From the NCBI GenBank assembly GCA_000004985.1, contig GG739583.1: 1,070 bases of DNA; one strand, 5' to 3'. Position numbers and translations under genes: made by a program. Position 1 is the first letter of the stretch. The number at the start of each line of letters is the position of its first letter. This DNA comes from Naegleria gruberi (lineage: Eukaryota). The notes beneath the pieces were generated by a model. It was given only the letters and a program-made list of their open reading frames with translations, did not search any database and was not told where the DNA came from. Shown here piece by piece: positions 2 through 1,070 of the stretch.

Positions 2-253
2 TTCAACACTGAAGATGTTTCTCAACTTATCAAGAATGCTATATTCTCTGTTGATTCAGAAATCACTGTTTCTGGTCACAGTTTACGTATTGGTGCAACT
101 ACTGAGAGTATTATCAAGGGAATTCCTACTCAGGATATTATTATGGGGACTAGACATAAGGATGTGAAATCTTTACAACCTTATCAAAGACAAGAAGCTC
201 TTGTAGCTCGCCACTTGTCTACTACTCTCCTTTCTCAGGACAATATCCATTAG
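2..253 (+). CDS. Tyrosine recombinase (phage-integrase/Cre-like family). C-terminal catalytic fragment; the 5' end is truncated by the window edge. Stop codon TAG at 251-253.
   Basis: Frame 2 is open from the window edge and translates to FNTEDVSQLIKNAIFSVDSEITVSGHSLRIGATTESIIKGIPTQDIIMGTRHKDVKSLQPYQRQEALVARHLSTTLLSQDNIH*. It carries box I 'GHSLRIG' (His at codon 77-79, Arg at 86-88), box II His at 155-157 and the nucleophile Tyr at 182-184. The H/R/H/Y spacing (0, +3, +26, +35) equals the Cre spacing H289/R292/W315/Y324. About 22 residues follow the Tyr before the stop, as in Cre. GC is about 38% here versus about 26% downstream. Confidence 0.85.
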   Translation, partial: FNTEDVSQLIKNAIFSVDSEITVSGHSLRIGATTESIIKGIPTQDIIMGTRHKDVKSLQPYQRQEALVARHLSTTLLSQDNIH

Positions 254-285
254 TTTATTTATTGTTGGTTTTCTTTTAAGAAACA
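243..285 (+). repeat. 43-bp perfect direct repeat, copy 1 (atatccattagtttatttattgttggttttcttttaagaaaca). It overlaps the last three codons (I-H-stop) of the recombinase gene. Candidate recombination core or att-type site.
   Basis: All 43 positions are identical to 772-814. The boundaries are sharp: position 242 is a where 771 is t, and 286 is t where 815 is c. The copy contains the recurrent ATTAGTTTATT motif at 249-259. Confidence 0.9.
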
Positions 286-336
286 TGTTCTTATCGAAGT
301 TTACTGAGATAAAGTAGTGTTTCTTGAAAACAACAA

Positions 337-351
337 TTGAATAAACTAATA
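337..351 (-). repeat. Left arm of a 15-bp perfect inverted repeat (plus-strand ttgaataaactaata; reverse complement tattagtttattcaa).
   Basis: Its reverse complement is identical to 411-425. It contains the ATTAGTTTATT motif in inverted orientation. For a 15-mer inverted match the chance expectation in this window is about 0.01. Confidence 0.75.
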
Positions 352-354
352 GAA

Positions 355-380
355 AGTATGATCAAAAAAATTGTCATACT
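355..380. other. Hairpin with a 7-bp perfect stem (agtatga / tcatact) and a 12-nt A-rich loop (tcaaaaaaattg).
   Basis: 355-361 agtatga is the reverse complement of 374-380 tcatact. The stem is AT-rich with only 2 GC pairs, so it is weak as an RNA terminator. On the minus strand it is followed by uucuauu. Confidence 0.4.
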
Positions 381-385
381 ATAGT

Positions 386-402
386 CCCACCCTTGCCCAC
401 CC
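386..402 (-). other. Motif on the minus strand capable of forming a G-quadruplex (G4): GGGTGGGCAAGGGTGGG. On the plus strand it reads cccacccttgcccaccc, an i-motif candidate.
   Basis: Four G3 tracts with loops of 1, 3 and 1 nt satisfy the canonical G3+N1-7 pattern, and short loops favour a stable parallel G4. It is the only GC cluster in a stretch of about 26% GC. It sits inside the inverted-repeat-bounded segment next to the hairpin. Confidence 0.6.
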
Positions 403-410
403 TCTATTAT

Positions 411-425
411 TATTAGTTTATTCAA
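411..425 (+). repeat. Right arm of the 15-bp perfect inverted repeat (tattagtttattcaa).
   Basis: Identical to the reverse complement of 337-351. The two arms enclose a 59-bp segment (352-410) that contains a hairpin and the G-tract motif. Confidence 0.75.
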
Positions 426-429
426 ATCA

Positions 430-443
430 AAGGTTCTAACCTT
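430..443. promoter_or_regulatory. 14-bp palindrome aaggtt-ct-aacctt (6-bp arms, 2-bp centre). Candidate dimeric protein-binding site.
   Basis: aaggtt (430-435) is the exact reverse complement of aacctt (438-443). It lies 5 bp after the right inverted-repeat arm. Confidence 0.3.
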
Positions 444-662
444 TATCCTTAATACTTTGGAATGTGATTTTTTAACCAATCCTCAAATATTTTCTCAATT
501 GATTGAAAGATTTCACTCTATTTGTATTATTGAAAGATGATTGTTATCATCTTTTTATCTTTGTATTATTATTTGATATTTGACAACTTGGTTTATTGTC
601 AGATTGCTTTAATTTAGTTTAGTTTTTGCTTTTTGTTAAGAAATCATAGTATGATTGTATTG

Positions 663-675
663 ATTAGTTTATTTA
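663..675 (+). repeat. Additional direct copy of the recurrent motif (attagtttattta), matching 249-261 and 778-790.
   Basis: A 13/13 match to the 5' part of the 43-bp repeat. It lies 109 bp upstream of repeat copy 2. Confidence 0.6.
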
Positions 676-734
676 ATTTCTGGACCTGCTGAATAAAACA
701 TAATGCCTAAAAACAGCAGTAACCAGGCTACAAA

Positions 735-752
735 CTACCTAAGAATAGGTAG
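735..752. other. Perfect hairpin ctaccta-agaa-taggtag (7-bp stem, 4-nt loop). It overlaps the stop codon of the minus-strand ORF.
   Basis: 735-741 is the reverse complement of 746-752. On the minus strand it is followed by only UUUG, so it is not a convincing intrinsic terminator. Confidence 0.35.
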
Positions 753-1070
753 AAGTTGTAGTGTGAGCTTTATATCCATTAGTTTATTTATTGTTGGTTT
801 TCTTTTAAGAAACACAACGCCAAAACCAGAATAGTTCTCCAAAAGAAACAATAAAACAATCGTTGATAAACCAATAGGTAGAAGCTCACTCAATATATTC
901 CACATCCAAAAGGATGGTATATGTTGCTCAGAAATGCTGCTTTGAAGGTCATTGACTTTATTGAACATTGTCCCGAGTAAATAAGGTTGTTTACAAAATC
1001 GAGATTGAAGTAGAACAACTCCTATAAAAAACCTGCATTGCAGGAAAAAATTAGTAAAACTCAATCCATA
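735..1070 (-). CDS. Hypothetical small hydrophobic (possibly membrane) protein, at least 111 codons. The 5' end probably lies beyond the window, since the frame is still open at position 1070. Stop codon TAG at 737-735.
   Basis: The only long open frame outside the recombinase gene. An open run of 111 or more codons on a roughly 72% AT strand has about 1e-4 chance per frame. There is no competing plus-strand ORF. The predicted protein has hydrophobic stretches (LSELLPIGLSTIVLLFLLENYSGFGVVFL) followed by a basic tail (KRKPTINK). The listed 'M' start is really TTG at 1064-1062, so the true start is unknown. The codon composition (Phe/Leu-rich) also resembles antisense or AT-rich noise, so confidence is moderate. 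Confidence 0.4.
   Translation of the reverse strand, partial: YGLSFTNFFLQCRFFIGVVLLQSRFCKQPYLLGTMFNKVNDLQSSISEQHIPSFWMWNILSELLPIGLSTIVLLFLLENYSGFGVVFLKRKPTINKLMDIKLTLQLLPILR
744..755 (+). repeat. 12-bp direct repeat aataggtagaag, copy 1. The partner copy is at 873-884.
   Basis: The two exact 12-mers are 129 bp (43 codons) apart and bracket 43-bp repeat copy 2. Each has an adjacent 7-mer: gtgagct at 763-769 and agctcac at 883-889, which are mutually inverted. A 12-mer direct repeat alone is only weakly significant here (expectation about 0.3). Confidence 0.4.
772..814 (+). repeat. 43-bp perfect direct repeat, copy 2. It lies 529 bp downstream of copy 1, inside the minus-strand ORF.
   Basis: Identical to 243-285 over all 43 positions with unrelated flanks on both sides. 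It reproduces ...ATC CAT TAG of the recombinase 3' end. A chance match is negligible, even at this AT bias. Confidence 0.9.
873..884 (+). repeat. 12-bp direct repeat aataggtagaag, copy 2.
   Basis: Exact match to 744-755. It overlaps agctcac, the inverted partner of gtgagct at 763-769. Confidence 0.4.

Follow-up and report, generated by a model that had tools for sequence, protein, structure and literature searches.

The 1,070-nucleotide (nt) stretch of Naegleria gruberi DNA analysed here (contig GG739583.1 of assembly GCA_000004985.1; hereafter the window) probably holds the 3′ terminus of a eukaryotic DIRS-order retrotransposon, which encodes a tyrosine recombinase (YR) and carries a split direct repeat (SDR) in the arrangement A1-[gag, RT/RH/MT, YR]-B1-A2-B2, where RT, RH, and MT denote reverse transcriptase, ribonuclease H, and methyltransferase, respectively. 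An 11-nt motif, ATTAGTTTATT, is iterated in the window and had been taken in an original prediction for a set of arm-type recombinase sites in a phage attachment region (attP). The motif is instead a core word of the repeat B: it is doubled together with B, occurs once inverted in A, where it pairs with B, and appears again in the B-like modules of A. The prediction correctly assigned the motif to the cis-acting repeat region of a recombinase-encoding mobile element, directly downstream of, and overlapping, the 3′ end of the YR gene. However, its phage attP architecture is not borne out, as nothing phage-like or prokaryotic was found and the YR family occurs in eukaryotic gag / RT-MT / YR retrotransposons.

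Probable Split Direct Repeat at the Element's 3′ End

The recombinase gene is followed by two copies of a direct repeat, B1 and B2, which are identical at 43 of 43 positions and start 529 bp apart (Table 1). Contig L004, which originates from a different ENA sample and is the closest relative extending past the recombinase gene, has its own perfect direct repeat (46/46; 368-413 = 989-1034) at the homologous position, with a different sequence. The L004 repeat begins in the last recombinase codons, in the same way as the repeat of the window, and the encoded proteins end similarly, with ...LLSQDNIH in the window and ...LLSRDNIQ in L004 (P0034). The two sequences can be aligned over the YR gene, B1, the next ~120 nt, a conserved right-hand block, and B2, and the alignment ends at 814/815. 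Since the homology to L004 ends right after B2, it could be deduced that the mobile unit terminates on its 3′ side with 772-814 and that 815-1070 is flanking DNA. Between the two repeats, the blocks 286-405, 583-605, and 668-771 are conserved with L004, and the centre (~420-582) is variable. Under the SDR model, A2 would be a copy of the 5′ end of the element (A1).

A third ENA sample provides contig L007, which matches 583-1070 of the window on its reverse strand (L007 1-705), with 100% identity to the right part of A2 and B2 (583-814) and 97% identity to the flank (815-1070). L007 is unrelated to the window left of 583, and its centre is L004-like. That the junction is shared although the flank has diverged more may mean that insertion was site-specific, in a target that is itself repeated, or that L007 is a mosaic/allelic copy of the locus.

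The repeats could also be regarded as non-functional debris, arising in AT-rich DNA through slippage or a tandem duplication of local extent, or else from an assembly artefact, given that the GC content is 22-34% across 250-800 and that all the related contigs are short metagenome assemblies. Such an origin is highly improbable in view of the independent contig L004, in which a different repeat sequence has the same architecture, and of L007, which reproduces 583-1070. It would also leave unexplained the compensatory changes of the hairpin described below and the perfect 43-nt identity against diverged surroundings.

Table 1. Positions and supporting observations of the features in the window.
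Feature	Position	Strand	Remarks
C-terminus of the tyrosine recombinase (YR)	2-253	+	83 codons and TAG stop (251-253); translation, Pfam, homologues
B1, upstream copy of the perfect 43-nt direct repeat	243-285	+	overlaps the final three codons of the recombinase; holds motif copy 249-259
Long imperfect hairpin/palindrome, 37 pairs	249-350	.	arms 249-295 / 308-350; spans the B1|A2 junction (285|286)
Putative A2, 486 nt between B1 and B2	286-771	+	alignment with L004, blastn blocks, L007
Inverted copy of ATTAGTTTATT	340-350	-	right arm of the hairpin and one arm of the inverted repeat 337-351/411-425
Direct copy of ATTAGTTTATT	412-422	+	variable centre of A2; inverted-repeat partner of 337-351
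Degenerate B-like modules	587-645	+	repeat search; block ACAACTTGGTTTATTGTCAG conserved in L001, L004, and L007
Direct copy of ATTAGTTTATT	663-673	+	conserved right part of A2
B2, second 43-nt copy, 3′ terminus of the element	772-814	+	holds motif copy 778-788
Flanking target DNA outside the element	815-1070	.	no L004 homology past B2

Recombinase and Gene Set of Its Relatives

The window shows only the C-terminal third of the recombinase. Translation of 2-253 in frame +2 gives ...VSGHSLRIGATTESIIKGIPTQDIIMGTRHKDVKSLQPYQRQEALVARHLSTTLLSQDNIH followed by the stop, which is the C-terminal part of a tyrosine recombinase, with its HxxR / H / Y residues. The catalytic motifs are GHSLRIG (HxxR), TRH (RH), and the Y in LQPYQRQ, so that the HxxR...[H/W]...Y signature of DIRS-order recombinases is present. 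The 83-residue fragment matches Pfam PF00589 with E=0.005 at profile positions 106-168 of 172, and the nearest solved structure is Cre, a weak match (E=2e-4). A search of 5.8 billion proteins yielded two matches, both on ENA metagenome contigs of ~1 kb or shorter, and a profile search of 1.84 billion representative proteins yielded 27. P0001 is 76% identical to the window fragment, and Naegleria fowleri holds one relative in its nuclear genome (XP_044569001.1). All the relatives found are eukaryotic or metagenomic. Judged from these searches, the recombinase is very isolated in sequence space and appears to represent a rare, uncharacterised lineage.

The catalytic H/W position divides these relatives. 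It is occupied by His (G-T-R-H, window 146-157) in the window, P0001, P0002, and P0034, and by Trp (A-G-R-W) in the more distant full-length relatives P0004, P0009, and P0024; Cre also has Trp at this position. The full-length relatives P0004 and P0009 comprise 302-306 amino acids, with PF00589 at about residues 142-286, the former over the curated cut-off and the latter just under it (26.9 bits vs 27.1). In an AlphaFold model of P0004, the N-terminal ~116 residues are all-helical, with a predicted confidence (pLDDT) of 44.8, which is too poor for a fold search. The core-binding domains of simple recombinases are helical as well. The modelled helical N-terminus and the length of ~300 amino acids give, as a weak indication, no sign of a lambda-type arm-binding domain.

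On the contigs of the full-length relatives, the gene order is a gag-like open reading frame (ORF), an ORF with RVT_1 and a Dam-like methyltransferase, and YR, often overlapping. The RVT_1 and Dam-like domains lie upstream of, or overlap, YR in L008 (1.9e-19 and 4.6e-5, respectively), L009 (1.2e-20 and 3.5e-4), and L003 (3.9e-26 and 8.9e-10), and RVT_1 is also found in N. fowleri (L006; 1.3e-20). For the Dam-like domain (PF05869) in the RT ORFs, the curated cut-off is passed by L003 only, with L008 and L009 below it, and the N. fowleri ORF showed no match to the domain. The upstream ORF in the gag position of L008 has no Pfam match, and a protein search with this gag, aimed at a 5′ end bearing A1, gave no match. 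The combination of gag, RT with a Dam-like methyltransferase, and YR in the relatives indicates that the recombinase family is of DIRS-order type. Within this order, the element of the window is most likely PAT-like, a placement made by layout and gene content.

The close relatives are mostly damaged copies, a pattern typical of decaying transposon copies. In L001 (600-700), the recombinase end is joined straight to the right part of A, with B1 and the left part of A deleted, and a frameshift lies upstream; L002 (360-380) is without the HxxR segment, and L005 (470-1020) continues with unrelated sequence after IIKG. The P0004-family contigs (L008 3981-4131; L010 and L011) end 66-150 nt past the YR stop, just within or after the hairpin, as would be expected if assemblies break where a terminal sequence is repeated. 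No direct repeats were found 3′ of the YR in L003, and the N. fowleri locus shows one clear inverted pair only; these two do not help in defining the termini of the clade to which the window belongs. Contig L006 of N. fowleri also contains direct repeats spaced by 1.1 kb in its 5′ region (6337-6437 and 7440-7520) and two 56-nt tandem-like repeats 3′ of the recombinase (10463-10600).

Arrangement of the Motif Copies

Exact copies of ATTAGTTTATT were found five times in the whole window, at 249-259, 412-422, 663-673, and 778-788 on the plus strand and at 340-350 on the minus strand. The four direct copies had been located correctly before, whereas the inverted copy had been given as 341-350. The base composition predicts 0.008 exact copies on both strands together, and matches with two or fewer mismatches number nine against 2.05 expected, a count reached in none of 200 dinucleotide shuffles. 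The signal is real and non-random, as the original prediction had it.

The five copies are not independent of one another. The copies at 249 and 778 fall within the perfect direct repeat 243-285 = 772-814 and are thus doubled with B. In the outer stem of the long hairpin, the inverted copy pairs with the first one (249-259), and together with the copy at 412-422 it also makes up the centre of the perfect inverted repeat 337-351/411-425 (15 nt). Its counterpart in L004 (465-480, TTGAATACAAACTATT) co-varies with the B sequence of L004 itself. Around the copy at 663, the segment 655-675 is 86% identical to 770-790, which is the A2|B2 junction. The homologous segment of L004 (869-882, TTAGTTTTATTCAA) bears the B-motif variant of that contig and thus changes in concert with B; this variant has three matches in L004 (B1, the right part of A, and B2), compared to 0.10 expected.

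Weaker copies are found in the B-like modules, where the identity is 79% between 592-610 and a part of B, and 63% between 603-645 and B. The looser copy noticed near 614-621 is a real degenerate B-like module at 613-623 (TTTAGTTTAGT), and a second one lies at 587-597 (CTTGGTTTATT). Possible further copies had been listed at 866-877 and 955-965; these positions are in the flank past the end of the element and at chance level, and the two-mismatch matches at 850-860 and 865-875, also in the flank, are within chance expectation. Collectively, the 43-nt split direct repeat, the conserved hairpin, and one conserved B-like module explain four of the five copies. Sites scattered around a recombination core, as first envisaged, do not describe this arrangement. 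In other relatives, the word CCATTAGT is kept at or after the YR stop (L008, L010, and L011), and L009 also keeps it ~20 nt past its YR stop; since the latter copy is beyond the stop, the retention is independent of coding.

Hairpin across the Junction of B1 and A2

The hairpin consists of B1 and the first 65 nt of A2, with the motif copies 249-259 and 340-350 as its outer stem. Its predicted DNA fold has a free energy of -21.5 kcal/mol and a z-score of -5.08 (RNA fold, z -4.83), and the same hairpin is found in L004 (z -5.10). Between the window and L004, at least four pairs are altered on both sides, including 250:349 (T:A to A:T), 262:336 (T:A to C:G), 266:332 (T:A to A:T), and 284:319 (C:G to G:C). 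The one-sided changes are of A-U to G-U, and no pair is broken. In L008, a ~110-nt hairpin with a different stem sequence stands straight after the YR stop (z -4.0).

From this conservation of pairing in sequence, a pairing role of the hairpin in the element appears possible, if somewhat short of probable, and it would be compatible with recombinase binding. In the mechanism that we propose, B1-A2 would be a stored copy of the circle junction, in which B2 is joined to A1, and this stored junction would be needed to rebuild the ends and to circularise the element before the recombinase integrates the circle. As B is complementary to A positions ~32-65, B2 and A1 of a linear single strand could form a stem of the B1/A2 type, which would hold the two ends of the single-stranded replication intermediate together for closure. 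In addition or alternatively, the palindrome near the junction in double-stranded DNA could present symmetric sites to the recombinase.

The motif copies could also be binding sites for the YR of the element itself, several protomers of which would assemble on B and A to recombine the circle junction with the target. We hold this only tentatively; it is compatible with the SDR retrotransposon reading and not exclusive of it. The copies occur in both orientations, clustered within ~550 bp beside the recombination junction. For the copy at 663, no sequence close by could pair with it, so that a binding site is the better fit than a stem. In L004, the motif variant shifts together in B, the inverted copy, and the copy in the right part of A, as co-evolution with a binding protein would also bring about. 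However, the compensatory changes span the whole 37-bp stem, far past the 11-mer, which points to pairing rather than to recognition of one word, and L008 retains the hairpin despite a quite different stem sequence. The ~300-residue relatives, with their modelled helical N-terminus, weakly suggest that no extra DNA-binding domain is detectable. Moreover, the DNA specificity is not known for any DIRS-order recombinase (PMC7192593).

The inverse complementarity within 243-350 raises another explanation, in which the element is DIRS1-like, with inverted terminal repeats (ITRs) as well as an internal complementary region (ICR). Here, 243-350 would be a palindrome of the left and right ICR (lICR-rICR) and 772-814 the end of the right terminus. 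A palindrome right after the YR stop is how lICR and rICR look when the ITR ends are alike, and the N. fowleri relative shows an lICR-like feature, a 31-nt stretch at its YR stop that is inverse-complementary to a sequence lying upstream of gag. In DIRS1-like elements, the rICR is expected to be ~100% inverse-complementary to the 3′ terminus (PMC3266345). Such an exact inverse complement was not found in the window, where inverted matching to the element's last ~50 nt reaches at best 72% over 39 nt (326-364 vs 764-802) and 88% over 16 nt (314-329 vs 803-818); although the latter complementarity speaks for a DIRS1-like end, the perfect copy of the terminus is direct both in the window (43/43) and in L004 (46/46). 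A DIRS1-like element is accordingly improbable.

A combination of the two types of termini can also be considered, in which this clade has SDR elements that also carry an ICR-like inverse copy of the terminal repeat. B would pair with a segment 32-65 nt into A, so that the ends of the linear single-stranded intermediate (A1 ... B2) would be clamped in the hairpin that B1|A2 stores. We regard this combination as rather doubtful.

Weighing the Retrotransposon Assignment

Several points weigh against the assignment to an SDR retrotransposon with a functional B|A hairpin. The A1, gag, and RT of the element fall outside the 1,070 nt, so that the equation of A1 with A2 is inferred. RT and methyltransferase are seen only in relatives that are ~47% identical in amino acids over the shared C-terminus, or less (~47% for L008), while the closer relatives L001, L004, and L005 are ~1 kb contigs without the RT region. 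The copy at 412 has no counterpart in the alignment with L004 and is specific to the window. The compensatory changes come from one sequence pair, the window and L004, and gene conversion between the repeat copies could contribute to the co-variation of the hairpin. Finally, a role of the hairpin or the motif in any transposition step is a proposal made from sequence.

The alternative closest to the original prediction is an attP, attL, or attR region of a prokaryotic phage or integrative element, with the 43-nt repeats as duplicated att cores and the 11-mers as arm-type sites. An int-like 3′ end does adjoin direct repeats here, and one of the repeats shares sequence with the end of an opposite-strand ORF, a superficial similarity to integration at a gene's 3′ end. 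This alternative is nevertheless extremely unlikely. A blastn search of the whole window against plasmid and phage collections gave no match, nor did protein-guided scans of IMG/VR, 185,579 GTDB genomes, and JGI metagenomes. A scan with a 23-nt DNA word taken from the right-hand, conserved portion of A was likewise empty. Thus, no phage or prophage context was found for the window in phages, plasmids, IMG/VR, or GTDB genomes. No tRNA or transfer-messenger RNA gene was found in the window, which rules out integration into a tRNA gene, and a search of Rfam at a permissive E-value gave two matches only, at chance level. In addition, the relatives sit in gag / RT-MT / YR units, one of them in the nuclear genome of N. 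fowleri.

The opposite-strand ORF (minus strand, 735-1070, more than 109 amino acids) runs from the flank across B2 into A2. Its match to MauE is below threshold (19.9 bits vs a cut-off of 27) and ends at the element boundary, and its sole database relative is P0035, the L007 version of this chimeric junction ORF. On account of the MauE match, the ORF was considered as a host gene for a membrane protein, struck by the element near its 3′ end; this was rejected, as the L007 junction ORF is the only match. The ORF is probably not a gene.

Other Observations in the Window

Three small features of A2 and its surroundings are recorded here. A 12-mer, AATAGGTAGAAG, is present once in A2 and once in the flank (744-755 and 873-884), and its copies adjoin GTGAGCT / AGCTCAC in inverted orientation (749-770 and 882-903). 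The flank might be a remnant of a related element, or the similarity might be due to chance; insertion of DIRS elements into copies of themselves has been reported (PMC7192593). At 686-719, a small stem (CTGCTG ... CAGCAG) encloses AATAAA (692-697) and is conserved in L004 (CTGCTGAATAAAGC...CAGCAG). Lying within A, ~120 nt before the end of the element, it could be a polyadenylation or termination signal. A C-rich island, CCCACCCTTGCCCACCCT, stands at 388-405 in the otherwise AT-rich A2 and is partly conserved in L004 (CCCACCCACCCTCC, ~527-540). The palindrome AACA|TGTT at the junction was examined as a Cre-like core site and dropped, as it is not conserved in L004, which has AGTAT|GTTA.

Comparison with Known Systems

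The combination of an int gene and iterated 11-mers is a tempting misreading as a prophage attachment site, which here is the terminal architecture of a retrotransposon. Lambda attP shares with the window iterated words of ~11 bp in both orientations near a YR gene. In contrast to attP, the window has neither a phage or prokaryotic context nor a core flanked by P and P′ arms, its copies are explained by the terminal direct repeat and the hairpin, and there is, as a weak indication, no sign of an arm-binding domain.

The locus represents a new, rare lineage of an already known kind of element, the DIRS-order retrotransposon, and its practical importance is modest. In this order, the rebuilding of the ends and the site of recombinase action are largely models, and only the ICR of DIRS-1 has been tested so far. 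This ICR is essential for retrotransposition (PMC7192593). In the models for this order, it is located just 3′ of the ORFs and stores the junction of the two termini, and it is needed both for rebuilding the full ends from a shorter transcript or cDNA and for making the circle, whose integration by the recombinase leaves no target duplication (PMC7192593, PMC3266345). Because the DIRS-order ends are largely modelled, a short B repeat in a co-varying B|A hairpin is a well-defined, testable cis element.

DIRS1-like elements such as Dictyostelium DIRS-1 have the same gene set and ORF overlaps as the family of the window, together with a cis element just 3′ of YR that is complementary to the terminus, as in the window. 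They also conserve a word no shorter than 10 nt across the two ITRs and the two ICRs, proposed to aid circle formation, and the recurrence of this word in all terminal and internal repeats parallels that of ATTAGTTTATT (PMC3266345). The difference is that the window holds its exact copy of the 3′ terminus in direct rather than inverted orientation, and that its inverted copy shows imperfect matching.

Ngaro, PAT, and VIPER elements have the layout A1-[ORFs]-B1A2B2, with the internal repeats 3′ of YR (PMC8547959, PMC4157794), and YR is the last ORF in Ngaro and VIPER (PMC8547959, PMC13465315). The latter two agree with the window in layout but lack a methyltransferase, whereas the full-length relatives of the window recombinase have a Dam-like domain after RT. 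The methyltransferase is carried by DIRS and PAT elements (PMC4157794, PMC7192593) and marks the DIRS1-like and PAT-like branches of the order (PMC4157794, PMC3266345, PMC7192593).

The PAT-like elements (Pat1, Toc, and Kangaroo) resemble the window in the use of YR in place of an integrase and in split direct repeats, with B1-A2-B2 after YR, and they have an ORF of RT and a Dam-like methyltransferase, as do the relatives of the window recombinase (PMC4157794, PMC3266345). A hairpin at the B|A junction was not found described for PAT-like elements, within a limited check of the literature. If SDR elements of this clade did carry an ICR-like inverse copy of the terminal repeat, they would be a structural intermediate between the PAT-like (direct) and DIRS1-like (inverted, with ICR) termini, of a kind not observed according to one survey (PMC4157794), and would offer a concrete, mutable cis element for studying how SDR elements circularise. 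Compared to PAT-like elements, the B of the window has a short length of 43 nt and, through pairing with its inverted counterpart in A, gives rise to a conserved B|A hairpin.

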